Assembly: GCA_963813345.1 (NCBI GenBank)
Contig: CAWEYR010000010.1
Span: forward strand, 70,592 to 134,591
Source of the DNA: an uncultured Acidobacteriota bacterium
GTDB taxonomy: Bacteria; Acidobacteriota; Blastocatellia; RBC074
Length of the DNA stretch: 64,000 bases
Direction of reading: 5' to 3'
The position numbers and the translations under genes are program-made. Of this stretch, positions 1,769-60,187 are shown piece by piece. Every line of letters begins with the position of its first letter. Position 1 is the first letter of the stretch. Below the pieces are notes generated by a model that saw only the letters and a program-made list of their open reading frames with translations, did no database searches and was not told the origin of the DNA.

Positions 1769-4700
1769 TCAGAAATTCACTCGCAATCCAATCACGATCA
1801 AACGCGATCCGGACGCAGTTGTAACCCGTCCGAAATTCGTCGAATTGATGTTCGTGTTGAACCCGTTGACGTAGTCATCAAAGATCGGAGTGTTCAGCGC
1901 ATCGATCATGTCGACCCTGAACTCAAAGTTTGCGGTCTCAGTGAATCTGAAACGCTTGATGATATTGAAGTCAAAGCGGAACGAACCTGGGCCAAGCAAC
2001 GGAGCCTGCGACAGCGTCCCCAGATTTCCGGCAAGTGGATTGACGAGCACCAGATTGCCTGACGAGTCAGTAATTGCGCGCAGCGTGCTGAGCTGTGCAA
2101 GCGCCGGAGTCATGCCTCCGAGCGACGGATCATTGACCTGGTTGTAACCCGTGTTGAATACAACACCGTTTTCCGTCTTCTGAACCCTGACAAAATCGCG
2201 AGGGAGATTCCCGGCCTGCGTGGGCGTGTTGTCGCCGCCGAAGAAATTGAACGTGTTGATCGGTGCAGTGAACGAGATAGGCGAACCAGCGAACTGATTG
2301 TAGATGACGCCCACCTGCCAGAGTTCGACAAGTCGTGCCACCCATCCACTGTTATTACCAAGGAACTTTCTTCCGGGTCCAAACGGCAGCTCCCAAATAC
2401 CGCTGCTCCGGAAGACGTGTGGAACGTGAAAGGTGAGCAACTTCTTCTCGAGCCCTCGATTGCGGCCGTTTCGAAAGCTGTCAAGAAGCTCCTGACTTGA
2501 CCCATCCTCCTCACCTAGCGTCCGGCTCCAGGTGTAATTCGCCTGCAGCGTCCACCCTCGAGAGAACCTCTTGATCACTTCGGCTTGAAACGAATGGAAA
2601 GACGAGTTGGCATAGTTGCCCGCGAGATTCGCACCCGCAAACTGAGGATTCGCGGTCACAAAGTTTTCCGCCAGGCCGACGCGGCGGAGAAGTCCTCCTC
2701 GTGCACCAGTGAAGTCAGTCGTCGTGTTGAGATAGTTTGCAAACGATCCCGCGCTGTTTGTCGCAAAGAAACCCTGAGTCGTGGTGAACCGACGCACAGC
2801 ATCGGAGCCCGGTGATGGTTGTTCCGTTGACGACGCCGACCCCTGGCACGTTTAAGCCCCATGAAGATCTGGTTGAGCAGGGGCGAGGTTCCACCAGTCT
2901 GTGTTACGAGAAATGCGCCCAAAAGCCCGTTCTCAAAAATATTCGTCTCGTTGATATTTGCGGTCCTGATGAGCTTTGTTCCTTTGCTTCCGACATAACG
3001 CAGGTCGAGCGTGAAGTCGCTCATAAGCTCACGCTGAAGCGTGACGTTCCAGTTCTGGACGTAGGGAGTTCGAAGATTGTCGTCGAAGACACGCACCGTC
3101 TGAACGCGATCGGTCAGTGGAACTGTTTCGAGCGGCCTCCCTTGAGGCACCAGTGGAAGCGTCAGACGCGCAAGGTCGAGATAGCCCGTCGATGTAAACG
3201 TAGTCGTGGTGCGCAGACCAGGCTGATCACCCGCGATGACATCAATCAACCGCAGCGCGCTTCGCTCGTAACCCCACCCGTAGCCCATTCGCAGAGTGGT
3301 CTTGTTCTCACCAAAATATGGAATCGCCCAGCTTAGTCCGATCGCCGGCGCAAAGTTGTTCCAGTCATCGTTGTAGAGCTTCGTGTCGGGCTTGGGCGAG
3401 TTCTTTCCGACAAGCTCGATGTTGGTGAGCTGCCCGTTGAGTCTTCCCGGTTGATAAACGTCGGCAAAGCTCGTCCCGGAAATCCCAAAGACCGAAGATG
3501 ATCCCCCGACCAGTCCTGCAGTCTTTCCGTTCGCTTCGAACACCACTCCGTACCAGTCGTAGCGAAGTCCGAGGTTGAGCGTGAGGTTTCGCGAGACTTT
3601 GAAATCGTCCTTGATAAACCAGCTGAATTCCCTTTGCTGCCACGTTCGCTGCTTCCCTTCTCCCGCAAGATAGACCGGGTTTGGTCCCGCAGGAGCATTG
3701 AACGCTTCTCTCGCGTTCGAGAGCGAACCTGAGAGGTCTGTCAGTACGTTCCGAGCCAGCGTCGCATTGTTTCCGAATACAGCGGCGGTGATGCCCTGGA
3801 CCGCAGCTCCTCCGGCTCCCAGAACCGCGCGCGGAAACACATCGAACGAATTGAAGCCATTCGTCGAAACGAATCGAACCTCGAATCCGCCCTTGAACGT
3901 ATGCTTACCTCTAACCCATGTCAGCGTGTCGGTGTACTGGTAGAGCGGCGAGATGCGGCCCTGTGGGTCATTCGTCAGATTGATCGGATCTGTCACTGAA
4001 GCGAAATCGGGTCCATACGCTACATTGTTGATTACTGGAATCAAGTTGCTGTTTTCAGCAAGTTGCCACGGCGAATTGAAGTCCAGGCGTGATCGTTGCG
4101 CTCCGCCTCTGAATTCATTCAGGAGAGTAGGAGAAAGCGTCGACGTGAGAGAGACCTGATAGAAGTAGTTGAGATTTTTCTGATTACCGCCCGGTGAGTC
4201 AGGATAGGTCTGTGCCATGAATCCGTTGAGAAAATTCTCGTTCTCACGTGAAAAGTTGAACGTCAGCCTGTGAGCCTCAGTGAATTGATGGTCAACGCGA
4301 ACGTTGATCTGGTCCCGATCTGCGCTTGTTCGTCTGATCCATGTGTGACCGGCAGTGTTGAGCCCGTCGCCTGCGCGAAAGTTATTTGGAAGCGGCATGA
4401 CTCCAAGGAGCTTGCTGATTGTCCCGGTCGGATCAGGGCCCGTCCGATTGGGATCACGCGTATAGAGATTGATCGACTGGAGGTCTCCAGTTGCTCCCGC
4501 GGGCCTGACCGGATTTCCATTGAGATCGGTAGTCGGAACCGCGGCGTTGGCGTTTCCATTCTGAACACCTGGATAGAATCTGAATATTCCGCGCCGGGCT
4601 GTATCGGTCAAAACAGTTGATGTCACAGTGCCTCGAGCACGTTGGCGTTGTCCCTCGTAGTTTACGAAGAAGAATGTCTTGTTCTTGATAATCGGTCCAC

Positions 4701-5541
4701 CGACGCGACCACCGAATTGATTTCGAATCAACTCATTGCGTGGCGCACCAATGAGGTTGTTGAAGAATGTATTCGCATTCAGAACGGTATTCCGGTGTGA
4801 CTCAAATGCACTTCCGTGAAACTCGTTTCCACCTGCTTTGGTGGTAAGGATCACCTGACCACTGCCGCGGCCAAACTCGGCGTCAGCTGGTGACGATACA
4901 ACGCGGATTTCATCCACCAGATCGACGCTCATGAAGATGGTTGAGTTAACACCCTGATTGATACGCATGTCCTGAACGTTGATTCCGTCTCGAAGAACAT
5001 TCACCTGCCCAATTCGCCCACCAGCAAAGTTGCTTCCAACCAGACCGGCTTGAGTAAGAACCAGCCCAAGCGCATCGCGATTTGGCAGCGGCAGGTCTTG
5101 AACGCTCTTGCCACTGATCACGCCGCCAACCGAATTCGCGCCGATTGCAAGATTCGGATCTAGCGGTGCACTTACTTTGACAACTTCCTCGGAAATCTGT
5201 CCGACCTCCATTTGAAGGTTGAATACAATTCGCGCCGAAAGCTCAAGGGTCACCTCGTCGTGTATGAGGCGCCGGAAACCGGTTCTTTCAGCGGTTAATC
5301 TATAGATTCCTGGCTGAAGACTCGCGAAGGTGTACACGCCTTCGTCATTGGTCGTAGCACTCGTCGAAGCCCCTGTCCTTGAATGCAAAGCAGTGATTGT
5401 TGCTCCCACCACGGCAGCACCTGCTGGATCACTGACAGTGCCGGATAGCGTGGCGTTTGTGGTTTGGGCACGAACATCGAAACCGGCGATGGAGAAGAAA
5501 GCTATCAACAGCCCAGCGAAAAGAGCTCGAGCACGTCTCAT
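1769..5541 (-). CDS. TonB-dependent outer-membrane receptor with N-terminal carboxypeptidase-regulatory-like domain (frameshift near 2800)
   Basis: ORF 2656..5541 begins with signal peptide MRRARALFAGLLIAFFSIAGFDVRAQ, then a CarboxypepD_reg-like segment (GTVSDPAGAAVVGATITALHS...DEGVYTFASLQPGIYRLTAE) and a plug/barrel. ORF 1769..2797 in another frame supplies the C-terminal barrel ending in the terminal Phe (...IGLRVNF). The 3' tail of the upstream ORF is Arg-rich junk. Confidence 0.85.
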
Positions 5542-6082: not shown

Positions 6083-6161
6083 GCAACCACAAGCTAAAGC
6101 TTGAACTCAAACTAGTAGTTGAACTATCGAGGTTTGAGTTCGAGCTTTAGCTTGTGGTTGC
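6083..6161. repeat. Family A palindromic repeat, arms in swapped order (GCAACCACAAGCTAAAGCTTGAACTC ... GAGTTCGAGCTTTAGCTTGTGGTTGC)
   Basis: The same arm sequences as copy 22488..22598, but the outer and inner halves are exchanged. It lies in the 660-bp divergent intergenic region. Confidence 0.7.
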
Positions 6162-7454: not shown

Positions 7455-7530
7455 GGAGTGGGCAGTGGGCTCAGTGCGGCAGTGGTCAGTCGGGCAGTGG
7501 CCAGTGGCAGTCAGTGGCTGTGGTCAGCGG
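7455..7530. repeat. Tandem heptamer-like array (GGCAGTG/GTCAGTG/CCAGTGG units)
   Basis: About 9 imperfect 7-mers right after the PQQ gene stop. The unit resembles the heptamer flanks of Family A copies (compare GGTCAGT at 55661), but no hairpin core is present. Confidence 0.6.
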
Positions 7531-7620: not shown

Positions 7621-9127
7621 TTACCCTGGAGTCTCTTTCTCTGCGCCTTTGATGGTTTTCATCGTGCTGCTCCCAACCTTGCCTGGATCGCCGCCGTTCA
7701 AACCATATGGCGGGAATCGTCGTCTGTCGGAAAGCAGAGAAACTCGAGCGGGAACCAGCACCTCTATCTCACGCACGACTCCGTCGCCGCCGCGGAACCT
7801 TCCATTTCCGCCCGATCCGCGGCGAATCTGATAGCGCCGGACCCGCATCGGATATGCATATTCGAGCGCTTCAACCGGTGTATTGAGCGAGTTCGTCATG
7901 TGTGTATGAACAGCTGAAAGACCATCTCCTGATGGCCTCGCCCCCATTCCGCCTGCGATTGTCTCGTAATACGAGAATTCACGTCCCTGATGTGCGTCCC
8001 AGCCGCCAATCGTCAGATTGTTCATGGTTCCTTGTGACGCTGAAGGGATCCGCGAGGGCGCAGCCTGTGAAAGCGCCTTGAAGAGTACGTCAACGATGCG
8101 TTGCGACGTCTCAACGTTTCCGCCAGCCACCGGCGCTGGTGGCTTCGCGTTGACAATTGTCCCCTCCGGAGCGATCACTTCGATCGGAGAGATTACTCCG
8201 GCACTCGCGGGCACATCACCAGCGATAAGACAGCGGAAGACGTAGTAAACCGCTGAAACCGTGATCGCCTCCACGGCGTTTATGGGACCGTTCACCTGCG
8301 CTGCGCTTCCCTGTGAAATCGACTTTCGCACGATCTCCCTTGATCTCGATCGTGACTCTGATTGGAATCGCATCGGCGCTCTCACCATCATCATCGAGTG
8401 CATCTTCCGCGCGATATATACCATCCGGCATCTCCGAGATTGCCTTTCGAGAGAGCCTCGCAGCGTAGTCAATTAGATGTTTCGCGTACTCACGCACTTC
8501 AGCGATGCCATACTCCTCGACAATATTGAGTATCCTCTCGGTGCCAACTCTCAAGGCCCCAAGCTGAGCCGCCAGGTCTCCCTCGCGCTCTTCGCGTCCG
8601 CGCACATTTGCAAGAAAGAGGCCCAGCAGTTCCAGATCAGTTACACCTCCGCGCGCGAGATGTACGGGAGGAATCCTCAAGCCTTCCTGGTAGATTTCAG
8701 TCGCTGCTCCCATCGAACCCGGGGTCGAACCTCCGATGTCGGCGTGATGGGCGCGGTTTGCAACATAAAAAAGGGGGCCGCTCTGCGATCGGCGAGCAGC
8801 GCGTGAGATTCCAAACACTGGAGCCACAAGAGTGACATCCGGCAGGTGCGTGCCCCCAGCGTAAGGATCATTCAGCATGATCACATCGCCGGCGTTCAGT
8901 TCGCAGCTGGCGATCGCAGCGCTCACCGACATCGGCATCGATCCGAGGTGAACCGGCATGTGATCACCCTGCGCAATAAGCCTTCCGGCGCCATCAAAAA
9001 CGGCGCATGAATAGTCTCGCCGTTCCTTGATGTTTGGAGAAAAGGACGCCCGGCGCAAACTCAAACCCATTTCCTCGGCTACCGAAGTAAACAGGCATCG
9101 AAAAATTTCGAGGCGAATTGAATCCAT
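7621..9127 (-). CDS. hyuB: Hydantoinase B / 5-oxoprolinase subunit (HyuB family); frameshift near 8310-8325
   Basis: ORF 8216..9127: MDSIRLEIFRCLFTSVAEEMG...DHMPVHLGSMP...LNDPYAGGTHLPD. ORF 7621..8472 in another frame: GPINAVEAITVSAVYYVFRCL...YYETIAGGMGARP...GGDGVVREIEVL. The junction is ...VDFTGKRSA then QVNGPINA. Confidence 0.85.
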
Positions 9128-9134
9128 AAGATTG

Positions 9135-9230
9135 CGGGGTCAGGGGTTGGGGATCGGGACTTGTCAGTTCAAGCTTCAGCTTGCTCGTACCATTCGAGCA
9201 TGTAACACAGCAAGCTAAAGCTTGAAAAAT
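9135..9230. repeat. Family A palindromic repeat with G-run flank (GGGGTCAGGGGTTGGGGATCGGG + CAGTTCAAGCTTCAGCTTGCTCG ... CAGCAAGCTAAAGCTTGAA)
   Basis: Hairpin core at 9164..9230. The 9135..9157 flank has four G3-4 runs with 2-3 nt loops, a canonical G-quadruplex motif. Confidence 0.75.
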
Positions 9231-11449: not shown

Positions 11450-11511
11450 AGAACCCGGGAGCGCCAGGCTCCAGCCTGGCGAATGTCTGTCACGCGCCAG
11501 GCTGGAGCCTG
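11445..11511. repeat. Family C palindromic repeat (CCCGGGAGCGCCAGGCTCCAGCCTGGCG ... CGCCAGGCTGGAGCCTGGCGCTCCCGGG)
   Basis: Near-perfect 28-bp inverted arms with an 11-bp spacer. The second copy is at 16897..16986. It overlaps the last codons of hyuA. Confidence 0.8.
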
Positions 11512-13589
11512 GCGCTCCCGGGCGAATTGCGATTCAGGATCAAATTTCGCCAGGCGTCGACTCGAGCGCGCCATCGCTCGGGAAGCCACGTCGTTGAGCC
11601 ATACTCGACAATGATCGCAGGTGATTCAATTACTTCACCCGGTGAGAAACGCTCGCGATTGTAGACCGCAACTTGTCTCAATCTCGTGCCTACGACTGCC
11701 GATGCACGGTGTGACGGCGTCGCTCGCCTCGCGGCCTTCATTCTGGCTTTAGGTAGGTCGGGTTTTTGCGTGATTCCGTTCGCCCTGAGCCTCAGCGTCA
11801 CAATCTCGATTTCGCGAAGTGGGTCACTGTGCCCATAGCGCTCGAGATGAAGACGGTTGAATTCGCCTATTGGATCACCCGCACCACGGTACTTCGAGCT
11901 CAAAGGACTGACCGCGATAACGCATTGAAAAGGATCTGACCAAATCAGTTTCGCGCCGGGTAAACCCCTCTACTCGAAGATCCGCATGCGCCTTTCTTTC
12001 AAGTCTCAGAAACCTTCGTTCGAAATCAGCACCGAGCGAGTCACCGGCTTTCACCCTCACCATCAGTGTCTGGCTGTAATCTTTCACGACATCGGCAAGA
12101 AGCACACCGAGCGCAGAAAAATTCCCCGGGTCGATCGGAACAATGACTCGGGAGATTCTGAGCGCGTCCGCCAGCGCTACGGCATGCAGCCCGCCTGCGC
12201 CTCCAAAGCTCATCAGAGAAAATAGTCGCGGATCGTGCCCTCGCTCAATTGAAACGAGTCTCAATGCCTGCTCCATGTTCAGATTTGCAACTCGCACGAC
12301 ACCAAGAGCGGCCTCTTCGATACTGAATTTCCGGCTCGAGGCGCGCGCAAGCTCCTTTGCCAGCCTGGCCTAGCGCTGTTCGCGAACGCTCGACATCGAG
12401 CGGCATAGAGTTGGATAGCAGTCCCACCCCGCCAAAGCGGCCAAGGATCAGATTCGCATCGGTGACAGTCGGTTGATCGCCGAGGCCGTAACAGGCGGGT
12501 CCCGGATCAGCTCCCGCCGACTGCGGACCTACACGTAAGGCGCCTCCAGCATCGACTCTCGCAATCGATCCGCCTCCTGCACCCACAGTGTGAATGTCGA
12601 GAACCGGAACAGCGACGGGCAAGCCTGCAAGTATCGCCTCATTCGTGGTTATAGCCTTGCCGGTGGAGAGTGACACGTCGGTCGAGGTGCCACCCATATC
12701 GAATGTAATAACTCGCTTGAAGCCGGCTTGCTTACCAATTGCAAGTGCCGCAACGACTCCGCCGGCTGGACCAGACAGGATGGTCCTAACCGGCTCGCGA
12801 GCTGCTTGCTGAGCGGATATCGACCCACCCGACGATTGCATGATTCGGACGCGTGGCCGGTGCCGGTTCCCTTCAGTAGTGTTCAATCCTTGTTCGAGGT
12901 TGCTCAGATATCGTCCGACTTTCGGCACGAGATAAGCATTGATGACAACGGTAGAAGTCCGCTCATATTCCCGATATTCCGGGAGAATCTCATGAGAAAG
13001 GGAGATATGGACTCCAAGGTCTGAGAGAGCTTTTGCGAGCACGGTCTCATGAACCGGGTTGGCAAATGAAAAGAGCAGACATACGGCAATCGATTCCACG
13101 CGAGCACGTTTCAGCCGCTCACGAAGTTGCGGCAAGAGCTGCCAGGTTGAGATCGTCGAGAATAGAACCATCTGAGGCGATACGCTCGGCAATTCCGAAA
13201 CGCAGATTCCGGGGGACCAGCGGGGAGCGGCGCTCTACGTTCAAGTTATAAAGATCGGGCCGTGCCTGGCGGCCAATCTCGATAACGTCCTCAAAACCCG
13301 CCGTGGTGATAAGCGCCGTGCGAGCCCCTTTGCCCTCGAGAAGAGAATTTGTACCGACAGTCGTGCCGTGCGCGATTTCAATCGCGAGCCCTGGTGGGAC
13401 CGCGCCGTCAACCTGTTTGTCTGCAATCAGTTTGATGATGCGATCGACACCGGCAATAATCGACTTTTCGGGATGACGTGGGGTGGAAGGGAGCTTAAAG
13501 GCGATCCGTTGACCCTTCCAGGTCGCAACGAAGTCGGTGAACGTGCCGCCAGTATCAATCCCTATCCGTAAGTTCAATTGTGTTATCAT
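11490..13589 (-). CDS. hyuA: Hydantoinase A / 5-oxoprolinase subunit (HyuA family); at least 3 frameshifts
   Basis: Four consecutive minus-strand ORFs in different frames (13119..13589, 12245..13192, 11875..12297, 11490..11903). In order they give MITQLNLRIGIDTGGTFTDFV...HGTTVGTNSLLEGKGARTALITTAGFEDVIEIGRQ; ...SIAVCLLFSFANPVHE...FDMGGTSTDVS; ...ERGHDPRLFSLMSFGGAGGLHA; ...FNRLHLERYGHSDPLREIEIVTLRL. Confidence 0.85.
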
Positions 13590-14959: not shown

Positions 14960-14967
14960 GAAGAGGG

Positions 14968-15101
14968 TGCTGAGTGCTGGTGCGGGTGCTGGGTGCTGAG
15001 TATGGAGTTCAAGCTTTAGCTTGCCGTCTGCAATGCATTGCGAACGAGCAAGCTAAAGCTTGAACTCCATACTCAGCACTCAGCACTCAGCACTCAGCAC
15101 T
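14968..15101. repeat. Family A palindromic repeat with GTGCTGA/GGTGCTG heptamer flanks
   Basis: Left flank: about 5 heptamers. Core: GAGTTCAAGCTTTAGCTTGC (15005..15024) ... GCAAGCTAAAGCTTGAACTC (15049..15068). Right flank: 4 x TCAGCAC. Confidence 0.85.
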
Positions 15102-15110
15102 CTCTTTGAA

Positions 15111-16791: not shown

Positions 16792-16896
16792 TTAGGTCTC
16801 CTGGGAATCGGTGAAGATCTCCTTTGCGCTAACTCTAGCCCTGATGGGCGATTGACGCCAGACCCACGAGCGTATGTTCGTAGCCGAGAGTCCGTG

Positions 16897-17015
16897 GGAG
16901 CGCCAGGCTCCAGCCTGGCGCGTGTCAATGTCGCTAAGGCGTTCGGCGATGATGACTGCGCCAGGCTGGAGCCTGGCGCTCCCGGGCGCTGGCGCTCCCA
17001 GGGCGGTACAGCGTA
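16897..17015. repeat. Family C palindromic repeat followed by a Family B half-site (GGCGGTACAGCGTAGC)
   Basis: GGGAGCGCCAGGCTCCAGCCTGGCG ... GCGCCAGGCTGGAGCCTGGCGCTCCCGGG, then CGCTGGCGCTCCCAGGGCGGTACAGCGTA. Compare 32866..32901. Confidence 0.8.
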
Positions 17016-21164: not shown

Positions 21165-21350
21165 TGTTTTCCGGACTTAATCACTATGGACGAGTAGGCT
21201 GAACTCGTCCGGCCGGCGCACTGACGAACACCTTCGTCGAGGCGCCGGTCCCTATCCTGGACTAGCCGAAATCGCGCACGAAAGTTTCCCACCGTTTCTT
21301 CATCGTCTCCATGAAACCCTGAGCGCGTTTGGGGGGAGGCCGGAACTAAG

Positions 21351-21399
21351 TTTGAGTTCAAGCTTCAGCCTGTGATGACAGCTGAACTTGAACTCAAAT
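21351..21399. repeat. Family A palindromic repeat, short degenerate copy
   Basis: TTTGAGTTCAAGCTTCAGCCTGT GATGAC ACAGCTGAACTTGAACTCAAA. Confidence 0.65.
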
Positions 21400-22473
21400 T
21401 ATTCGCTCTCACCGGGCGGCTTCGGTGGCGCCACAGGCTGCTGCTGAGGCTGTGGCTGTTGCTGCTGCTGTTGAACCTGAGGTGGGCGGCGGCGCGGCTG
21501 TCTGGGTACAGGTTTTGCGCTCGCGATCTCGATGTATGTCTTGATAATCCGCTCCCGCTCTGCAGGATCAACGATGAGATAGCGGTGTTTGCCCTCTGGT
21601 GACGCTGCGAACTTTGTGCGGCCATCATCTAGCACGCTGATGGTACCGCGGTTCCGATAACTTGAAATAACCCGCCTTAGACCGTACAGCATAGAGTACA
21701 GCGGCCATCGCCAGCGTCGGCGCATCATAGGGCATTGACTTGTAGGCGCGGTAAGCGTCAACGACAGGATGCGCTGGCGTCCACGCGAAATCCTTTTCAA
21801 TGCTTGCTCCTGGGAAAAGAAGTGACGAACCGACCTCATCGCCTGCAGCAATCACGGGAGTCGGCCATTCCAGGAAGAGCTTCCTCGCAGCCGGAATGTC
21901 GGTCGTGGCATTGAACTGCGGCGGGCCGCCTGGGTACGCGCCACAGGCAATCGAAAGAAACTGCACCTTGCGGGAGATGATATCTTTTGCGCCGTGGACA
22001 TCAAGCAGGCTCGCCAGATTGCTCGCAGGCCCGGTCAACACAACAATGCAACTTTGATCGGGCTGCTGCGCGATCGCGTTTCGGATCAGCGCTCTCACTT
22101 CGGCAGTGTCGGTGAGCTTTTCGATTCCGTGTGAGTAGACTGGCTTACCCTCCTCGTTACGTCTTGCCAGCGGCACCGTCAGCATCGGAGTGTCTTCGGG
22201 CAGCTTGCCGTTTTCGGCAAGACCCACGGGCAGTGTCCGTCCGACTGCTCCGAAGGCGCCGCTTGAGGCTCCTCCATAGAATCTACCAATGGCCTCGCAA
22301 AATGCCGCGGATTTGAGGTTGGGTTTGCTTACGCTGAGCGAGACGACGCGGGCTTCGCGCTTTCCTTCAAACCCGTAGAGCAAAGCCAGAGCAAGCGCCT
22401 CATCAACGCTCGAACCGAGCCCCGAATCGAAGATGATTCCTACCGGTTGTGTCTCTTGTGCCTGATCCTGCAT
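21399..22473 (-). CDS. Nucleoside-hydrolase-like protein with degenerate aspartate motif and Q/P-rich C-terminus; frameshift near 21640-21665
   Basis: ORF 21625..22473: GIIFDSGLGSSVDEALALALLYG in place of the canonical DxDxxxDD, and the rest of the IU-nucleoside-hydrolase fold. ORF 21399..21851 in another frame continues ...NRGTISVLDDGRTKF... and ends PRQPRRRPPQVQQQQQQPQPQQQP. Confidence 0.55.
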
Positions 22474-22487
22474 TTAAAGACCGCTTG

Positions 22488-22598
22488 GAGTTCAAGCTTT
22501 AGCTTGTGGTCGGCCCTGAATACGAAAAGTCCGCCAAGAACAATGCATCCTCTTTGAGGGTAACAATGCAACCACAAGCTAAAGCTTGAACTCAAACC
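22488..22598. repeat. Family A palindromic repeat, long-spacer copy
   Basis: GAGTTCAAGCTTTAGCTTGTGGT ... (58-bp spacer) ... GCAACCACAAGCTAAAGCTTGAACTCAAAC. Confidence 0.85.
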
Positions 22599-22634
22599 TC
22601 GTTGGCAAAACTGTCCGGGTTTGAACTCTGAACC

Positions 22635-26341: not shown

Positions 26342-26379
26342 TTGTGATGGTCCGTAGTGAACTCAACCCGACTAAGTGT

Positions 26380-26398
26380 GAGTTCAAGCTTTACGTGC
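26380..26398. repeat. Family A solo half-site (GAGTTCAAGCTTTACGTGC)
   Basis: Left-arm sequence only. No matching right arm within 150 bp. Confidence 0.5.
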
Positions 26399-31635: not shown

Positions 31636-31646
31636 TCCCAACGCCT

Positions 31647-31762
31647 GGGAGCGCCGGCCTCCGGCCGGCCACGAGCCGCGAAGCGTGCGAGTCGTGGAGA
31701 GTCCTTGTGCTGAAGACTCGCACGCTTCGCGGCTCGTGGCCGGCCGGGAGGCCGGCGCTCCC
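31647..31762. repeat. Family D 116-bp palindrome (GGGAGCGCCGGCCTCCGGCCGGCCACGAGCCGCGAAGCGTGCGAGTC ... GACTCGCACGCTTCGCGGCTCGTGGCCGGCCGGGAGGCCGGCGCTCCC)
   Basis: Near-perfect inverted halves. Terminal GGGAGCGCC/GGCGCTCCC shared with Family C. Second copy at 32766..32882. Confidence 0.85.
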
Positions 31763-31792
31763 AGGCGCGCTGCAAGGTACCTAAGTTCTATT

Positions 31793-32832
31793 ATGCTTAC
31801 ATTCGACGATATTCTTGCGGCGCGCACACGCATTGAAGGAGTCGCGCATCGCACACCAGTGATCACATCGCGACAATTCAATCGCGACGCCGGGTGTCAG
31901 GTCTATCTTCAAATGCGAAAACCTTCAGCGCGCTGGCGCCTTCAAGTTTCGTGGTGCCTACAACCGGATCGCGTCGCTCAGTCCTGAGGAACGCAAGCGT
32001 GGAGTCCTTGCCTACTCTTCCGGAAATCATGCTCAGGCTGTTGCCCTCGCTTCGAGCCTCTTCGACATTCACGCGACGATTGTCATGCCAGAAGATGCTC
32101 CGCGTTTGAAGGTCGAGGCGACGCGCAGTTATGGTGCGGAGATCGTTTTTTACAACCGGTACACCGAGAACCGTGAAGAGACCGGCGAACGTCTTAGCAG
32201 GGAGCGGGGACTCGCTCTTGTACCACCTTACGACGACTATGCCGTTATGGCTGGCCAGGGAACGGTGGCACTCGAGCTTCTTGAAGAGGTGCCGGGTCTC
32301 GAATATCTGCTGGTGCCGGCGAGTGGCTGCGGGCTTCTGGCCGGATGCGCAACTGCAGCCAGACATATGATGCCTGGTATTCCGCATTTACGGAGTCGAA
32401 CCGGAAGCTGGAAATGACACCTGGCAATCGTTTCGCAAGGGTGAGCGTGTCGAGATAGCAGTTCCAAAAACGATCGCCGACGGACTGCAGACTTCAGCCC
32501 CCGGCAAACTGACATTTCCGATAGTCAAGGAACACGTCAACGATATCCTGCTTGTCAGCGACAACGAACTCATTGAAACATTGAGTTTCATTCTGCAACG
32601 CGCAAAGGTTCTTGTTGAACCTTCAGGGGTTGCCGGCGCTGCAGCCGTCCGTCACCAGAAACTGGATTGCCGCGACGCTCGTGTTGGTGTCGTACTGTCT
32701 GGCGGAAACGTAGATCCCGAGAAACTCTCACAATACCTGGTAGCAACGGGCATTAGTAGTGCCGCTGGGAGCGCGGCTCCGGGCCGGCCACGAGCCGCGA
32801 AGCGTGCGAGTCGTGGAGAGTCCTCGTGCTGA
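31793..32832 (+). CDS. PLP-dependent threonine dehydratase paralogue (copy 2), disrupted by frameshifts near 31909 and 32385; 3' end runs into repeat
   Basis: MLTFDDILAARTRIEGVAHRTPVITS...GCQVYL in frame 2. KCENLQRAGAFKFRGAYN...SSGNHAQAVALASSLF...LVPASGCGLLAG in frame 0. YGVEPEAGNDTWQSF...LVEPSGVAGAAAV...VLSGGNVDPEKL in frame 1. Each junction is consistent with a single extra C. Confidence 0.7.
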
Positions 32833-32901
32833 AGACTCGCACGCTTCGCGGCTCGTGGCCGGCCCGGAGGCCGGCGCTCCCAGGGGCGGTACAACGTACC
32901 C
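32766..32901. repeat. Family D palindrome (copy 2) followed by Family B half-site (GGCGGTACAACGTACC)
   Basis: About 95% identical to 31647..31762, in the same orientation. Followed by CAGGGGCGGTACAACGTACCC, as at 16987..17015. Confidence 0.85.
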
Positions 32902-35209: not shown

Positions 35210-35470
35210 ATGTCCTCACCACAAATTGATCGGCTGGCAGACTTCCTCTCATCGATTCTCAATGAGCGGGAAGAGTTAACTTTACTCTTATATACACCCT
35301 TTGGAATTGCGCGCGGAAAGCTCAAGCGCGGATCAATCGGTGAAGCCTTCGAGCTTCGCGATGTAACGGTCGAGCACTACTCGAATCATCTTCCCACCGG
35401 TCATTACAAAAGCCTGCTGATAACCCTGTCAGACGTCCAGGGCTGCGCCGTGCTCGAAGAGTACCTGTAA
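35210..35470 (+). CDS. Hypothetical small protein (86 aa)
   Basis: Intact ORF with coding-like composition. No recognised motif. Confidence 0.4.
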   Translation: MSSPQIDRLADFLSSILNEREELTLLLYTPFGIARGKLKRGSIGEAFELRDVTVEHYSNHLPTGHYKSLLITLSDVQGCAVLEEYL

Positions 35471-35477
35471 GTGCAAT

Positions 35478-35570
35478 TTGGAGTGCGGCGACCTGGCGCC
35501 GCTTCAGCTTGCTCCTTCGGATTACGTGCGTCGCGAAGACTCAAGCGGCGCCAGAGACGCCGCACTCCAA
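35478..35570. repeat. Family E palindromic repeat (TTGGAGTGCGGCGACCTGGCGCCGCTTCAG ... TCAAGCGGCGCCAGAGACGCCGCACTCCAA)
   Basis: Inverted arms of about 30 bp. Second copy at 43940..44027. Confidence 0.75.
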
Positions 35571-35586
35571 TTGGCGCTCCCAGCAT

Positions 35587-36713: not shown

Positions 36714-36735
36714 CGGTGGAATCTACTTTCTTTTG

Positions 36736-36803
36736 TACGTTGTACCGGCTTTAGCCGGAATCTTCGAATTTCAGGATTCCGCCTGAAGGCGGTACAACGT
36801 ACC
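36736..36803. repeat. Family B double (inverted pair) hairpin repeat
   Basis: GTACGTTGTACCGGCTTTAGCCGGAATC + 10 nt + GATTCCGCCTGAAGGCGGTACAACGTACC. Overlaps the NUDIX 3' end. Confidence 0.8.
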
Positions 36804-43939: not shown

Positions 43940-44027
43940 TTGGAGTGCGGCGGCTTGGCGCCGCTTTAGTCTCCTGCAGAATGATCCGATCGGGAGACTA
44001 AAGCGGCGCCGAGCCGCCGCACTTCAA
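43940..44027. repeat. Family E palindromic repeat (TTGGAGTGCGGCGGCTTGGCGCCGCTTTAGTCTCC ... GGAGACTAAAGCGGCGCCGAGCCGCCGCACTTCAA)
   Basis: Outer arms match the 35478..35570 copy. The inner stem differs. Confidence 0.75.
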
Positions 44028-45976: not shown

Positions 45977-47239
45977 TCATTCGGGTCGCGATTCAACTAC
46001 GCCGTATTTACGTCCTGTCGACGAGACCCAACTGCGAAGTTCCTGGCTTGCCTGCGAAAACTTTTGCGCATTGTCGCGAAGGATTGATCGCCTGAGTGCC
46101 GCGTCCGATTCAAGCAATGCCTTTCGCTGCACACGCAGCACATCGGCCAAATCGCGCCTGATGGCGTCTGCTGTTTCATCGGGCGCGTACGTCGACTCCA
46201 GCATTTGCGCAACCCGATCGAGTCGCTGAGTGACCTCATCCGTCTTGTTCGAATCTCTATCGGCACTAATCGATTGCTGCATCACTCGATTGGCTTCGTT
46301 GATGCTATCGAGAAAACTCCCGATCGAGGATGCACGGCGCGAGAGATGAGGAGAGCTGACTTGCCATGCGCGGAGAAAACTATAGCCGACAATTACAACC
46401 GAGATCGCGAGTACCGCGAGACCTATAGTGGAAATGCGTTCCTTCCCGGGCGCGATGTAAGGAATCAGAATCGCTGCAAGTGCGCCACATACCAGACCGC
46501 CAATGTGCGCTGAGTTATCGATGACAGGGACTGAGAAGCCAATCAGAAGATTGATTGCAATTACAGGAAGAACACCGCTGCCAAATCCTCGCCTGAATGC
46601 TGCCGGTAGCTCGTGTCTGTACTTGTAGCCGAAGACAGCGAGAACTCCAAAGAGACCAAATATCGCTCCCGATGCTCCAACGGATGGAATGCTTGGGTCC
46701 CGGCGAAGCAGCACGCTTCCGATGTAGCTACCCGCAACACCCGCAACTCCACAGAGAAGATATATGAGCACAAACCGGGCAGAGCCATATAGTCTTTCCA
46801 CCTGAGGACCCACCATCCAAAGTGCATACGAGTTGGAAGCGATATGAATCAACCCGCCGTGAATGAAGATCGGCGTGATCAGTCGAAACCACTCTCCCTG
46901 CTGGCTGAGAAGCTCATTTGTCTTGGCTCCAAACGCTACCAGGGTTGCCGGGTCGACGCCCGAGACAAGATTGGTCAGAAAATTTCCGCCAGCGGCGGCG
47001 GTCATAATGAGATAGATGAGAGCATTCAGTATGAGAATGGCGTAAGTCAGCGGCGTGGCGCGAGAGAAATAAGCTCGCGCGAACGCCTGGGTTGACCTCG
47101 CCTGGTCGGTCTCGACGACGGCCTGAACCGAGCGCATGCCGCAATTCACGCATTCGGGAGAGTTAGACGGTGTAGGCCGCCCACATCTCGTGCATATGCG
47201 AAACGGCCGCGGATCCGGGCCAACATTTTCCAAAGACAT
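45977..47239 (-). CDS. Rhomboid family intramembrane serine protease with N-terminal zinc ribbon
   Basis: CTRCGRPTPSNSPECVNCGM. Catalytic GASGAIFGLFG and HIGGLVCGAL. The ORF extends upstream through the Family A repeat, so the start is set at MSLENVG. Confidence 0.8.
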   Translation of the reverse strand: MSLENVGPDPRPFRICTRCGRPTPSNSPECVNCGMRSVQAVVETDQARSTQAFARAYFSRATPLTYAILILNALIYLIMTAAAGGNFLTNLVSGVDPATLVAFGAKTNELLSQQGEWFRLITPIFIHGGLIHIASNSYALWMVGPQVERLYGSARFVLIYLLCGVAGVAGSYIGSVLLRRDPSIPSVGASGAIFGLFGVLAVFGYKYRHELPAAFRRGFGSGVLPVIAINLLIGFSVPVIDNSAHIGGLVCGALAAILIPYIAPGKERISTIGLAVLAISVVIVGYSFLRAWQVSSPHLSRRASSIGSFLDSINEANRVMQQSISADRDSNKTDEVTQRLDRVAQMLESTYAPDETADAIRRDLADVLRVQRKALLESDAALRRSILRDNAQKFSQASQELRSWVSSTGRKYGVVESRPE

Positions 47240-47267
47240 AGTCCGCGATTCTATCCGATTTCGCTGT

Positions 47268-47427
47268 AGTGCTAAGTGCTGAGTGCTGAGTGCTGAGTGC
47301 TGAGTGCTGAGTGCTGAGTGTTGCAGTCTGAGTTCAAGCTTCAGCTTGCTGATCTGCGATATCCCATAGACAGCAAGCTGAAGCTTGAACTCCATACTCA
47401 GCACCCAGCACTCAGCACTCAGCACTT
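47268..47427. repeat. Family A palindromic repeat with asymmetric GTGCTGA heptamer flanks (7 left, 4 right)
   Basis: (GTGCTGA)x7 + GAGTTCAAGCTTCAGCTTGCTG (47330..47351) + 19-bp loop + CAGCAAGCTGAAGCTTGAACTC (47371..47392) + (TCAGCAC)x4. Best-preserved copy. Confidence 0.9.
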
Positions 47428-47462
47428 CTTCGGGCCTTTAAAGTTTGGTAGACTCAACGGCG

Positions 47463-49088
47463 ATGGCTTTGTTCAAACCTGACGAAAAGCGCGTCGAAGG
47501 GTCAAGTGCTGCAGCTGTTGCCGAAAACGCTCCTCAGGTCAGCCAGACCAAGGCGAGGCCGCGTGCCTTCTCGATTGGCGGACTGATCGATTCGTTTCTT
47601 GCACTTCTGAGCGCGGTGCCATTTGGCATCTTCCTGCTGGTCCTCCTGATATCAGCCTGCATGATAGGAATGCTGATTCAGCAGGTCGAGCTCCAGACCT
47701 TTCCGAAATACTTTGCAGAGCTGACACCTTCGGAAAAACTGATCTATGGCAGATTGGGATTTTTTGATATTTATCACGTCTGGTATTTCAATCTGCTGCT
47801 TCTGCTCCTGAGTCTGAACATCATTCTCGCGTCGATCGACCACTTTCCCAAAGCATGGAGCTTCGTCCGAAAGAAGAAGCTTACTGCGTCGCCGACCTTC
47901 GCGATGACACAACGGTTCAGGGAACAGGTTTTGATGCTCGGCTTCGATCGCGCTGAACTTTCGAAACGGGCGCAGGAAGCTGCGAAGGCGCTCAAGTTCA
48001 AGATTCGCACGACCGACGAGACTGACCGCACAACCATCTTCGCTGAGCGTGGGGCGTGGAATCGGCTCGGTGCTTACGCAGTACACGTTGGACTGCTGAC
48101 GATCTTTGCTGGCGGATTCCTCACAAGTCGAGGGCACACTGGTGGAGTCTGGATGGAGCCGGGCGAGACGAATGATCGGATGACGAAACAGGTCTTCAAT
48201 TTCGAAGGCGCTTCAACTCAGTTCGCCATCGGGAATCAAGACCTCGAGCTTCCCTTCTCTCTCGAGTGCCTCGATATTCAGCAGAAACTGATCAATAAGG
48301 ATGGTGGAATCGAAACCCCAAACACTCTTGATTGGCTGACTCGAGTGCGGATCAGGGACAATGAGAACGGACAGCAGGAGGAAGCTCTTGTTCACATGAA
48401 CAAGCCGTTTGACTACCGGGGCTATCGATTCTTTCAGGCGTCAGTTACGGAATTCGGAAGCGCACGCAGCGTCCGGCTCCGCGCAATTCCAGCCGCGGGT
48501 GGAACGGCAGAAGAAATCACAATTCCTCGCGGGGGCGAAGCGCGTCTGAGTGACGGCACTCGCGTTGTCTACAGGGAATTCAATCCTGATTTCAGAGTGG
48601 GTCCGGACCGCACTATTGATTCCGGTCCCGGCGTTACGTCTTACGCGAGGCCTGCGGCGCATCTCGATGTGATAAGACCAAACGGTGAGAGGGGCGATTC
48701 CTGGGCATTTACCGAAGCCGTTACAGAGACGTTGACGCAGCAAACGGCGAATGCGCCGTTTCTTCAGTCAATGCTTGCGGCCGGAGGCGGCTACAGGTTT
48801 GTTCTTCTCGACTTCGAAAAGGTAGCGAAGGCCCATATGCTCTCAGTCCAGTACGACCCGGGTGTCAAGGTCGTCTATGTCGGGTTCACGCTGCTTTGTA
48901 TGACGCTTATCGGAGTATTCTTCTTCTCGCACCAGCGAATGTGGATTGTTGTTGAAGACGGCAGGGTATCGCTCGGGGGCGACTCGAACCGCAATCGGCT
49001 GGGGTTTGAAGAGCGTCTTAAGAGGATCGCCGCCCGGATACGCGATCCGCACAAGAGAGAAGAAGTTGATAACACTCTCCGCGACTAA
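47463..49088 (+). CDS. resB: Cytochrome c biogenesis protein ResB/Ccs1
   Basis: ResB topology: N-terminal TM helices, a large soluble domain, a C-terminal TM helix. FPKAWSFVRKKKL. An alternative TTG start lies at 47445. Confidence 0.75.
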   Translation: MALFKPDEKRVEGSSAAAVAENAPQVSQTKARPRAFSIGGLIDSFLALLSAVPFGIFLLVLLISACMIGMLIQQVELQTFPKYFAELTPSEKLIYGRLGFFDIYHVWYFNLLLLLLSLNIILASIDHFPKAWSFVRKKKLTASPTFAMTQRFREQVLMLGFDRAELSKRAQEAAKALKFKIRTTDETDRTTIFAERGAWNRLGAYAVHVGLLTIFAGGFLTSRGHTGGVWMEPGETNDRMTKQVFNFEGASTQFAIGNQDLELPFSLECLDIQQKLINKDGGIETPNTLDWLTRVRIRDNENGQQEEALVHMNKPFDYRGYRFFQASVTEFGSARSVRLRAIPAAGGTAEEITIPRGGEARLSDGTRVVYREFNPDFRVGPDRTIDSGPGVTSYARPAAHLDVIRPNGERGDSWAFTEAVTETLTQQTANAPFLQSMLAAGGGYRFVLLDFEKVAKAHMLSVQYDPGVKVVYVGFTLLCMTLIGVFFFSHQRMWIVVEDGRVSLGGDSNRNRLGFEERLKRIAARIRDPHKREEVDNTLRD

Positions 49089-50737: not shown

Positions 50738-51151
50738 ATGCCAGACCTTGAACTTGAGTACACCCTTTTCTGTGAGGATGTGCGCTTTGAGGCCTCTAAT
50801 CACCTGAGCCTGATGGGCGTGACTCATCAGGTAGTTGTTCCTCGCCTGCCAATCACGGTTATCAAGTTCGCAGTGATAACTCACTGGCGAGGTGAGGGGC
50901 AGTATTTGAGTGAAGTTCGTATCCTGACGCCCGATCGAATGCAGACAGTAGCGGTGTCTCAGCCGGGAAGCTTTGTAGTTCCGGCTGACGGCTACTCAGA
51001 CAATGTCACTGTCTTCGTGAACCTCAATATCTTCCAGTCCGGCAATCATGTCGTTCAGGTACTGGTAAATTCAAATGTGTTCGCGGAGCGTTTGCTGCCT
51101 GTAATGCTCATGGAAAACCAGCCGGTTCCCGAGAGCGAACACGTCAACTAG
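50738..51151 (+). CDS. Hypothetical protein (137 aa), translationally coupled to ccsA
   Basis: Start 4 nt after the ccsA stop. No recognised motif. Coding-like composition. Confidence 0.45.
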   Translation: MPDLELEYTLFCEDVRFEASNHLSLMGVTHQVVVPRLPITVIKFAVITHWRGEGQYLSEVRILTPDRMQTVAVSQPGSFVVPADGYSDNVTVFVNLNIFQSGNHVVQVLVNSNVFAERLLPVMLMENQPVPESEHVN

Positions 51152-51152
51152 G

Positions 51153-51220
51153 CATGTCGTACCGCCTTCAGGCGGAATCGTGACAAGCAAAGATTCCGCC
51201 TGAAGGCGGTACAACGTGCC
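51153..51220. repeat. Family B double hairpin repeat
   Basis: CATGTCGTACCGCCTTCAGGCGGAATCG + 11 nt + GATTCCGCCTGAAGGCGGTACAACGTGCC. Confidence 0.8.
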
Positions 51221-55616: not shown

Positions 55617-55660
55617 CTTCGAAAGAATAACACGCGACCATAGGCAACTATTCCGAAGAA

Positions 55661-55814
55661 GGGGTCGGTGGTCAGTGGTCAGTGGTCAGTGTGAGTTCAG
55701 AGCTTCAGCTTGCTCTCAAAGATCGAGCTGCTAACGACAGACAAGTCTAAAGCTTCGAACTTCCATGACACTGACCACTGACCACTGACCCCTGACCCCC
55801 GACCCCCTCCCCTG
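55661..55814. repeat. Family A palindromic repeat (degenerate core) with GGTCAGT heptamer flanks and C-run tail
   Basis: GGGGTCGGT(GGTCAGT)x3 + GTGAGTTCAGAGCTTCAGCTTGCTC ... GTCTAAAGCTTCGAACTTC + (ACTGACC)x3 + CCCTGACCCCCGACCCCCTCCCC. Confidence 0.8.
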
Positions 55815-60104: not shown

Positions 60105-60187
60105 GTACGTTGTACCGCCTTTTAGGCGGAATCGCGGAAGCCAAAGTCGTGGAATCCAGGATTCCGCCTGAAGGCGGTACAACGACC
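60105..60187. repeat. Family B double hairpin repeat
   Basis: GTACGTTGTACCGCCTTTTAGGCGGAATC + 26 nt + GATTCCGCCTGAAGGCGGTACAACGACC. Lies directly after the glmS stop. Confidence 0.8.

Follow-up and report, generated by a model that had tools for sequence, protein, structure and literature searches.

The palindromic element at positions 47268–47427 of a 64-kb stretch of DNA from an uncultured Acidobacteriota bacterium of the Blastocatellia/Pyrinomonadaceae type (hereafter the window; G+C content of about 55%) quite probably represents a new family of REP (repetitive extragenic palindromic) elements and of REPINs, in which the core would be made of two inverted REP units spread by a dedicated REP-associated tyrosine transposase (RAYT), and some copies would lie inside heptamer arrays of variable number. 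REPINs and RAYTs have been studied almost solely in Proteobacteria. The family described here is unusual in its non-GTAG tag with a minimal covarying stem, in its spread across phyla, and in its nesting in variable-number inverted heptamer arrays; no REP family with this consensus was found described, and the arm sequence was absent from the literature searched.

At the 47330 copy, the left heptamer array (47269–47324, plus strand) is composed of one GTGCTAA, six GTGCTGA and one GTGTTGC, is preceded by a partial unit at 47263–47268 and forms the outer 5' half of a long hairpin; Tandem Repeats Finder called this array at 47263–47333 with a period of 7 and 10.0 copies. The left REP unit follows on the same strand (47325–47349) and comprises a degenerate tag AGTCTG, the tetranucleotide AGTT, the stem halves CAAGC (47335–47339) and GCTTG (47344–47348) around the loop TTCA (47340–47343), and a final C; it was delimited by an exact arm match at 47330–47349, by the REP position matrix of 289 arms, and by the covariation of the stem. 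A central spacer of 23 nt, TGATCTGCGATATCCCATAGACA (47350–47372), makes the apical region of the REPIN hairpin, and the right REP unit (47373–47397, minus strand; exact arm match at 47373–47392, minus strand, and inverted repeat I1) is the reverse complement of the left unit, with the tag GTATG(G) on the minus strand. The right heptamer array (47398–47425, plus strand) finally reads TCAGCAC, CCAGCAC, TCAGCAC, TCAGCAC and is the inverse of the left array (Tandem Repeats Finder, 47396–47426, 4.4 copies). As the original prediction, made from the window without database searches, had led us to expect, 47255–47435 folds as one hairpin, with −68.4 kcal/mol as DNA (z −12.8) and −116 kcal/mol as RNA (z −13.0). 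The worry that the element might be an assembly artefact was dispelled, because it is found at the same locus in the independent assemblies L127, L131, and L133 (L-numbers denote the contigs or loci from other genomes that were compared with the window). When the arm GAGTTCAAGCTTYAGCTTGC was searched for with up to three mismatches, furthermore, 12 matches were found in the window versus none in 100 dinucleotide-preserving shuffles. Each of the nine core positions listed in the original prediction holds a copy or a remnant on inspection, all copies sit between open reading frames (ORFs) supported by Pfam, and the description of a dispersed, intergenic, hairpin-forming, and non-autonomous repeat family is supported.

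According to the matrix of 289 arms, the REP unit is 24–25 nt long and has sharp ends, GTTYRG / AGTT / C-NNN-C / TTYA / G-NNN-G / Y, with the base composition being random upstream of −6 and downstream of +18. Its parts are a 10-nt single-stranded 5' tail (GTTYRG-AGTT), a 5-bp stem with three covarying inner pairs, and a conserved TTYA loop. Covariation was tested with 149 distinct arms, the loci of which had been picked by homology of the RAYT protein and not by the arm sequence. The 5-bp stem was paired in 98.1% of cells versus 74.3% in shuffled sets, and the observed value was reached in 0 of 500 shuffles; double-sided stem changes numbered 177 versus 52 in shuffles, and pairing in slid controls did not exceed 38% of cells. 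At least eight stem variants were seen overall, including AAG/CTT, CGC/GCG, AAA/TTT, CGA/TCG, AAC/GTT, and AAT/ATT, and such free complementary changes argue for pairing within a strand and against sequence-specific recognition of a duplex palindrome. Also, the partner arms are often self-compensated and not complementary to the first arm (CAACC-TAAA-GGTTG, CAGCC-TAAA-GGCTG, and CACGC-TGAA-GCGTG); all three variable pairs are kept in both arm-local stems in 80 of 97 doublets, and full arm-to-arm complementarity is found in 23. Over the loci and the window, which had been chosen by the arm itself in the case of the loci, 97 doublets and 80 singlets were counted, which gives a singlet:doublet ratio under the limit of 2 that characterises REPINs, and the inverted doublets occur in both orders. 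Direct repeats of 3, 4, 5, 6, 7, and 8 nt flanking 96 doublets numbered 1, 0, 0, 0, 0, and 0, respectively; namely, there are no target-site duplications.

A sister sub-family with the sequence GTACC-GCC-TTCA-GGC-GGAATC (GTACGTTGTACCGCCTTCAGGCGGAATC, called family D here) was found at 1660–1690, 36735–36802, 51151–51220, and 60121–60172. Its palindromes fit the REP template AGT[TAC]C-CGCC-TTYA-GGCG-G and occur beside RAYT genes too, and L127 and L132 both retain the 51151 doublet at the orthologous site. Judged from these sequences, family D is a member of the same REP superfamily, by which reckoning the window holds at least 13 elements, and it may signal a second RAYT paralogue.

The transposase gene was identified in relatives. 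With Escherichia coli RayT (NC_000913) as the query, Y1-transposase genes were hit in L051, L080, and L004. The L051 protein (199 aa) scored 24.9 bits with Pfam Y1_Tnp (PF01797; cut-off 23) and 78.2 bits with NCBIfam REP_Tyr_transpos versus 18 bits for IS200, and its sole relative in the PDB is TnpA-REP (4ER8; E = 2e-5), to which its HUH and Tyr motifs align. Across 20 aligned homologues, H87 and H89 (the HUH pair), N151, and V153 show no variation and Y147 almost none; at E <= 1e-10, 1,392 homologues were retrieved, several of which are named "REP-associated tyrosine transposase" by JGI. The gene lies between an upstream L-arm and a downstream R-arm in L051, L123/L124, L125 (where the R-arm overlaps the stop codon), and L126, and it is arm-flanked also in L080. 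A metagenome scan with the alignment of the 20 homologues gave 80 loci, 69 of which extended 120 nt or more beyond the gene in both directions. At 62 of these 69 loci, the gene has an L-arm upstream and an R-arm downstream, each no more than 300 nt away, and at 68 it has at least one arm, the background elsewhere in the same loci being 7 arms per 132 kb. Such a REP-bracketed RAYT gene is the defining REP-RAYT arrangement (PMC3116915; PMC6006769). When 3,533 ORFs from 118 loci were clustered all against all, only common families were found near the arms, the largest being extracytoplasmic function (ECF) sigma factors at 7 loci. The original prediction had held that the element matches neither CRISPR repeats nor REP sequences and bacterial interspersed mosaic elements (BIMEs). 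The first half is borne out, given the inverted arms and the irregular spacing of copies kilobases apart, but the second is not: the REP architecture is present, with arms that are independent covarying stem-loops, that occur as singlets and as doublets in both orders, and that bracket the RAYT gene.

As a separate observation on the transposase genes, the RAYT homologue P0186 in L123/L124 (1501–2172) has its HHNPVHHGYVK motif duplicated internally with a short insert between the two copies, which may be a REP-like insertion in the transposase gene.

Comparison of strains provides the evidence on mobility. Alignable to the window are L133, the flanks of which are 93–98% identical, and also L127 and L132/L134 (about 82% identical), L132 and L134 being two stretches of a single contig. 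Empty sites and the behaviour of a variable-number tandem repeat (VNTR) had both been named as things to look for, and both are seen. The element at site 22488 of the window is missing from L133, where the site is empty (70 nt vs 220 nt; flanks 95–97% identical; genes 11 nt apart), and the heptamer counts vary among genomes at sites 9165, 15005, 47330, and 55690. At 9165, L133 has the same doublet with five versus four G-rich heptamers and an intact right arm, and L134 has about nine GGGGTCA and about three TGACCCC around a different nested palindrome. At 15005, the GTGCTGA-flanked doublet is shared by the window, L133, and L134 with about 5, 3.7, and 4 left units and with 4, 4, and 2 right units, respectively; although its sequence has diverged strongly, also in the close strain, the spacer is still palindromic. 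At 47330, L127 has four left units versus eight in the window, the same four right units, and the loop variant TTTA/TAAA on both arms versus TTCA/TGAA in the window; its 23-nt spacer is wholly unlike that of the window, which in turn shows about 75% similarity to that of an unlinked L013 copy (733–865). At the same site, L132 has degenerate GTGCTGA/TCAGCAC remnants around an unrelated palindrome, and, at 55690, its (GATTTTA)3 palindrome is enclosed by (GGGGTCA)n and (TGACCCC)n. Strains differ in whether a site carries the element or is empty, and the core has been exchanged at 47330, 55690, and 9165. The REP remnant at 21354, moreover, sits at a rearrangement junction, in that a 2.5-kb indel between the window and L133 has one of its ends there.

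In the rhomboid/resB region, which surrounds the 47330 copy in the window, distant relatives have another palindrome family (L121) or nothing (L118). A palindrome family with arms like GGGAGCGCCAGGCTCCAGCCTGGCG was noticed at 11454–11522, 16896–16983, and 31642–31767 of the window, and a relative of it occupies the rhomboid/resB spacer of L121 (3770–3880). An apical motif shared by two cores of L132, GGCCGTTCTGA, was also followed up and set aside, its matches elsewhere being mostly due to chance.

The family is not confined to the lineage of the window, as had been thought possible. The 19-mer AGTTCAAGCTTYAGCTTGY was scanned against 185,579 species genomes, and at least 117 stretches in other genomes matched, so that the arm is by no means found in the window only; the exact 19-mer occurs in metagenome-assembled genomes (MAGs) of at least four to six phyla. 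Among the matches listed, 72 stretches belong to Acidobacteriota, 29 to Verrucomicrobiota, 6 to Lentisphaerota, 4 to Planctomycetota, and 1 each to KSB1 and Calditrichota, and the other 4 come from unclassified or mislabelled bins. Several of the stretches are on contigs of 0.4–3.5 Mb, and binning error is thus no general explanation. Outside the search seed, the arms in Acidobacteriota have the tag GTTYAG and CAGCC or CAACC partner stems, and those in Verrucomicrobiota have the tag GTTGG and CACGC partner stems. From such sequences, the whole looks like one superfamily with diverged sub-families and not like a single recent transfer, and the REP-RAYT system seems to inhabit uncultured soil phyla, among them Acidobacteriota and Verrucomicrobiota. 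In a verrucomicrobial MAG (L033, 2797–3700), we also noticed a higher-order REP cluster, namely a 220-nt tandem repeat of at least four copies, each of which opens with a REP arm bearing the GTATGG tag.

Heptamer arrays adjoin four copies in the window, namely that at 9165 on the left side only and those at 15005, 47330, and 55690 on both sides. In a census of tandem-repeat periods over 985 kb of the compared loci plus the window (arrays of at least three copies), period 7 was represented by 106 arrays versus 11, 13, and 11 for periods 6, 8, and 9, respectively. Neighbouring period-7 arrays form 17 inverted pairs and no direct pair, and 14 of the 17 enclose a loop of 5–45 nt with no REP inside; inverted heptamer-array hairpins are hence an entity in their own right. 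Each of the REP-free hairpins has its own unit (e.g., CAAATGA, GAGTTGA, ATTTACG, AGGGATG, CAGTTTT, and AATTGGT). Two observations tie the arrays to the REP. Beside RAYT genes, arrays of (GAGTTCA)n or (TGAACTC)n are found, which correspond to the terminal heptamer of the REP and are always on its tail side, and the REP itself can be read as the in-phase degenerate heptamers GTTYRGA, GTTCAAG, and CTTYAGC. At two or three orthologous sites, the heptamer arms are older than the core. The copy in L013 has the same heptamer and core as the 47330 copy and a similar spacer at an unrelated locus. Two candidate origins of the heptamers were rejected. A G-quadruplex basis is at odds with most units (GTGCTGA, CAAATGA, ATTTACG, etc.), which have no G-runs, and descent of the units from the REP tail is suggestive only, in that the in-phase cases (13 of 545) are not mutually independent and seven have 5/7 identity to GTTCAGA. 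Apart from these composites, a solo direct array of the CAGTGGN type lies at 7457–7530 of the window, just past the stop of a BamB-like gene, with neither an inverted partner nor a REP.

By homology to E. coli TnpA-REP, the folded single-stranded REP may be the recognition unit of a single-copy, trans-acting Y1/HUH RAYT. By nicking and rejoining at the tail of the REP, this enzyme would copy, excise, or replace intergenic REPINs. The conserved unit with its covarying stem can be regarded as a natural mutagenesis map, according to which RAYT probably reads the tail, the loop, and the shape of the stem but not the sequence of the stem. Inverted 7-nt tandem arrays lengthen the stem of the hairpin and might grow or shrink by slipped-strand mispairing at its base; at some loci, the seed of the array could be the terminal heptamer of the REP, GAGTTCA. 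REPINs may then insert preferentially at the single-stranded apex of the hairpin or travel with the arms as a composite, and the arrays would outlast the centre, which might be renewed by RAYT-dependent insertion or exchange.

The relation between the two kinds of repeat could be turned around. The heptamer-array hairpin would then be primary, either as a self-expanding class of palindrome of which REP doublets are one of several apex occupants, or as a 7-nt stutter created by RAYT at the REP tail. The REP-free majority of the inverted pairs (14 of 17), the conservation of arms around differing cores at orthologous sites, the invariably outward extension of (GAGTTCA)n from the tail of the REP, and the reading of the REP itself as three in-phase degenerate heptamers would all fit, as would the unexplained convergent heptamer pairs in Xanthomonas (PMC4692102). 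We nonetheless hold this inversion to be unlikely: more than 95% of the REP doublets are without heptamer arms, the occurrence of the composite at unlinked loci in two genomes suggests copying of the whole unit, and slippage alone can account for the changes in copy number. In the same vein, it is a doubtful idea that inverted heptamer-array hairpins are an element class of their own, present in several phyla, with locus-specific units that outlive their centres, and perhaps tied to RAYT by addition and removal of 7-nt units at the REP tail or by use of the apex as a landing site of REPINs. If that were true, gain and loss of units driven by RAYT would amount to transposase-driven birth of microsatellites, and landing at the apex would give onion-like nested palindromes; either version would explain the unexplained excess of heptanucleotides in Xanthomonas and cyanobacteria.

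It is less likely still that the element is a functional structured RNA (i.e., a bidirectional terminator, an mRNA-stabilising 3' hairpin, or an RNase III site) kept by selection at the RNA level and not by mobility. The very stable RNA hairpin described above, the location of six of the nine copies downstream of at least one gene, and a covariation compatible with RNA pairing would agree with such a role, and co-option of REPs in this manner is known in other bacteria (PMC3733652). Rfam, however, gave no match at the gathering score, only models of miRNA precursors being hit far below it (e.g., with the 6083 copy); the stem has no T-tract after it, and three of the nine copies are between divergent genes. 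The empty site at 22488 in L133, with its flanks of 95–97% identity, and the unrelated palindromes that replace the core at orthologous sites also speak against selection on an RNA, while the covariation backs the small arm-local stems and not the long hairpin. The tight bracketing of a transposase gene, moreover, is not expected of an RNA regulatory motif.

The original prediction had seen a likeness to a miniature inverted-repeat transposable element (MITE) or to a structured repeat. In the classical sense, a MITE is a deletion derivative of a DDE-type insertion sequence (IS), whose arms are terminal inverted repeats moved by cut-and-paste with a target-site duplication, and inverted arms around a short interior that varies, dispersed intergenic copies, and presence/absence between strains are all reminiscent of it. 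We consider this explanation very improbable, since there is no DDE transposase, direct flank repeats are nearly nil in the 96 doublets, the arms are covarying stem-loops that occur solo and in both relative orders, only housekeeping families recur near them in the 118 loci, and the sole gene consistently bracketed by them is the Y1/HUH RAYT. Recognition of the palindrome as double-stranded DNA by a dimeric protein (an operator or a site for a nucleoid protein), to which the palindromic shape and some copies in promoter regions such as 47330 and 55690 between divergent genes might point, is hardly credible, given that the stem bases vary freely while remaining complementary and that the neighbouring genes are functionally unrelated.

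Several points weigh against the assignment to a REP/REPIN family with its own RAYT, or limit it. GTAG is found at −9 to −6 in 18 of the 289 arms (6%), being enriched at that one position, which falls short of a canonical tag, and the family is accordingly not filed as a GTAG REP. No RAYT gene was found within the 64-kb window, so the link to RAYT for the source organism is drawn by analogy from relatives; the 78.2 bits of the L051 protein are below the NCBIfam equivalog cut-off of 80, and, for a claim about the whole family, the look-up of the RAYT clade covered Acidobacteriota-like contigs only. The location of three of the nine copies between divergent genes is unusual for classical REPs. 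As an account of the heptamer arms, the assignment is weakened further: at least three in-phase heptamers accompany 13 of 545 REP arms, which are concentrated in the lineage of the window and one other MAG within the GTATGG-tagged sub-family, and the composite of L013 at an unlinked locus speaks for a composite mobile unit rather than for insertion into an array already present. Finally, several of the compared assemblies are long-read MAGs with frameshifts, in which single-base differences within arrays may be sequencing errors.

Among known systems, REPIN/REP-BIME with RAYT (Nunvar 2010; Bertels & Rainey 2011, PMC3116915; Ton-Hoang 2012; Messing 2012, PDB 4ER8) is like the present family in having a short extragenic palindromic unit, singlets and inverted hairpin doublets, a variable spacer of similar length, a bracketed Y1/HUH RAYT gene, presence/absence polymorphism, and no target-site duplication; the density of about one element per 5–7 kb here implies hundreds of copies per genome, which is again alike. 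Unlike in that system, where GTAG abuts the stem, the tag GTTYRG is followed by AGTT, the stem is of 5 bp, and the loop is a TTYA tetraloop; the unit is common to at least four phyla, whereas the classical families are mostly specific to a genus or an order; one third of the copies are between divergent genes; and some copies are set within inverted heptamer arrays, a feature that we did not find reported for REPINs. The GTAG-tagged REP superfamily, with its head-head, tail-tail, and head-tail dimers (Di Nocera et al. 2013, PMC3733652), offers a similar picture: the tags are outside (47330 and 15005) or inside (6089/6136), the solo arms are singlets, the swapped copy at 6089/6136 is a tail-tail dimer, the spacers vary in sequence at similar length, and several families coexist per genome. 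Degenerate tags such as GYRG and GTRG are known there as well (PMC3733652). Our family differs from it in the rarity of GTAG (6% of arms), in the 4-nt AGTT linker between tag and stem, and in a consensus that is not among the families listed for Acidobacteria (PMC3733652). IS200/IS605 elements share the Y1/HUH enzyme, recognition of a small imperfect hairpin with an adjacent single-stranded tail, the absence of target duplication, and a gene between left and right hairpins; the protein here, however, scores 78 bits as RAYT versus 18 as the IS200 transposase, the two ends are inverted copies of one unit, and the overwhelming majority of the units are gene-less doublets or singlets.

Regarding the heptamers, Elhai is said to have described, in 2008, small dispersed repeats of Nostoc that lie within heptamer arrays. 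Heptanucleotide repeats are known as GGGAATC in Xanthomonas and as the STRR GGGGAYT in Nostoc/Calothrix, with function and origin unexplained, and 70 of 186 heptamer arrays in Xanthomonas are convergent inverted pairs that are potential stem-loops (Rehm et al. 2015, PMC4692102). Like those, the arrays described here are intergenic, are made of 7-nt units that typically number about four, and differ in copy number between relatives (PMC4692102). Unlike those, the unit is locus-specific (GTGCTGA, GGTCAGT, GGGGTCA, CAAATGA, etc.) and not one genome-wide sequence, many units are not G-rich, and a REP doublet or another palindrome is central. REPINs nested in heptamer arrays would thus join two unexplained repeat phenomena and suggest how heptanucleotide repeats might originate, by a mechanism that can be tested; should the link between REPIN and heptamer be coincidental, a well-characterised new member of a known family would be left. 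In practical terms, the elements break short-read assemblies and mark rearrangement junctions, which is relevant to MAG quality and strain typing. Indeed, the short-read contigs L128–L131 terminate at or within the element of the 47330 site. In L128 (1–90), a long poly-C run ends the contig directly before the right flank of the element, which is an artefact of assembly or sequencing.

Tandem Repeats Finder placed the paired heptamer arrays of the window at 14967–15001 and 15071–15102, at 47263–47333 and 47396–47426, and at 55663–55691 and 55771–55806. The second composite (14967–15102; I2), between convergent genes, consists of about five GTGCTGA, a REP doublet that bears the GTATGG tag and encloses a palindromic spacer of 23 nt, and four TCAGCAC. 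A degenerate REP doublet whose arms have indels (55658–55809; inverted repeats I9 and I10) has GGTCAGT arrays on one side and CTGACCA/CTGACCC on the other and lies between the divergent genes of an ECF sigma factor and cofD. The doublet at 9135–9229 has arms at 9165–9184 and 9210–9229, the right of which is decayed, and about four GGGGTCA-like G-rich heptamers on the left only. Without heptamer arms is the doublet at 1688–1760, located between convergent genes with a solo REP of the CCGCC-TTCA-GGCGG type just upstream (1660–1690). The arm order at 6083–6161 (I3, divergent genes) is swapped just as the original prediction had it, with an R-type arm at 6089–6108 and an L-type arm at 6136–6155, so that the tags point inward in this "tail-tail" doublet. 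The others are a compact imperfect doublet at the junction of the 2.5-kb indel (21348–21400), a doublet with a 66-nt spacer and an extra REP tail inserted between two co-directional genes (22483–22630), and a remnant (26355–26395) in which an R-arm tail (GTGAACTCAAC) is followed by a truncated L arm (GAGTTCAAGCTTTA). The nine copies had been thought to sit mostly between gene ends; the flanking gene pairs are instead convergent in three, co-directional in three, and divergent in three.

We also noticed that heptamer-bearing composites, irrespective of the heptamer type, often have GAAGAAG as their outermost left flank and CTTCTTC as their outermost right flank (14960–14966, 47426–47432, and 55652–55658 in the window; also in L013, L030, L070, L127, and L132). 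Such flanks might represent a terminus that is conserved or reflect a preference for certain targets.

The 47330 element fills most of the 223-bp spacer between two divergent genes, that of a rhomboid protease, whose ATG is at 47239 on the minus strand, and resB, which starts with the ATG at 47463 on the plus strand. It leaves gaps of 23 nt and 36 nt to the respective start codons, and at least one promoter would therefore be in or beyond the hairpin. A sigma-70-like site is present on the minus strand by consensus match only, with the −35 box TTAGCA (47275–47270) in the variant first heptamer and the −10 box TAGAAT at 47253–47248. Any effect on rhomboid and resB would be secondary, and might, for example, be displacement of a promoter or a hairpin in the 5' untranslated region.

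Elsewhere in the window, the gene for a beta-barrel outer-membrane protein (1769–5541) and that for hydantoinase B (7621–9127) are each split into two overlapping ORFs, and both are intact in L134 and L133. The splits thus represent frameshifts, due to either long-read assembly errors or pseudogenes, and call for caution with single-base details of the repeats. A tRNA scan of the window found none. Other hairpins were noticed as well: a perfect inverted repeat of 33–36 nt, CCGGCCGGCCACGAGCCGCGAAGCGTGCGAGTC, with a 21-nt loop occurs at 31661–31747 and 32777–32869, one of the two being nested in the palindrome at 31642–31767 (family B), and a hairpin family, TTGGAGTGCGGCGGCTTGGCGCCGCTTTAGTCTCC, is found at 43940–44027 and 35465–35583 with weak, sub-threshold matches to Rfam hairpins. 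An unrelated repeat, GCCCGCCCGCTAMCGCAGGCGGTTCTGAC, is present in several acidobacterial loci (L141, L170, and L100), once directly beside a REP arm.

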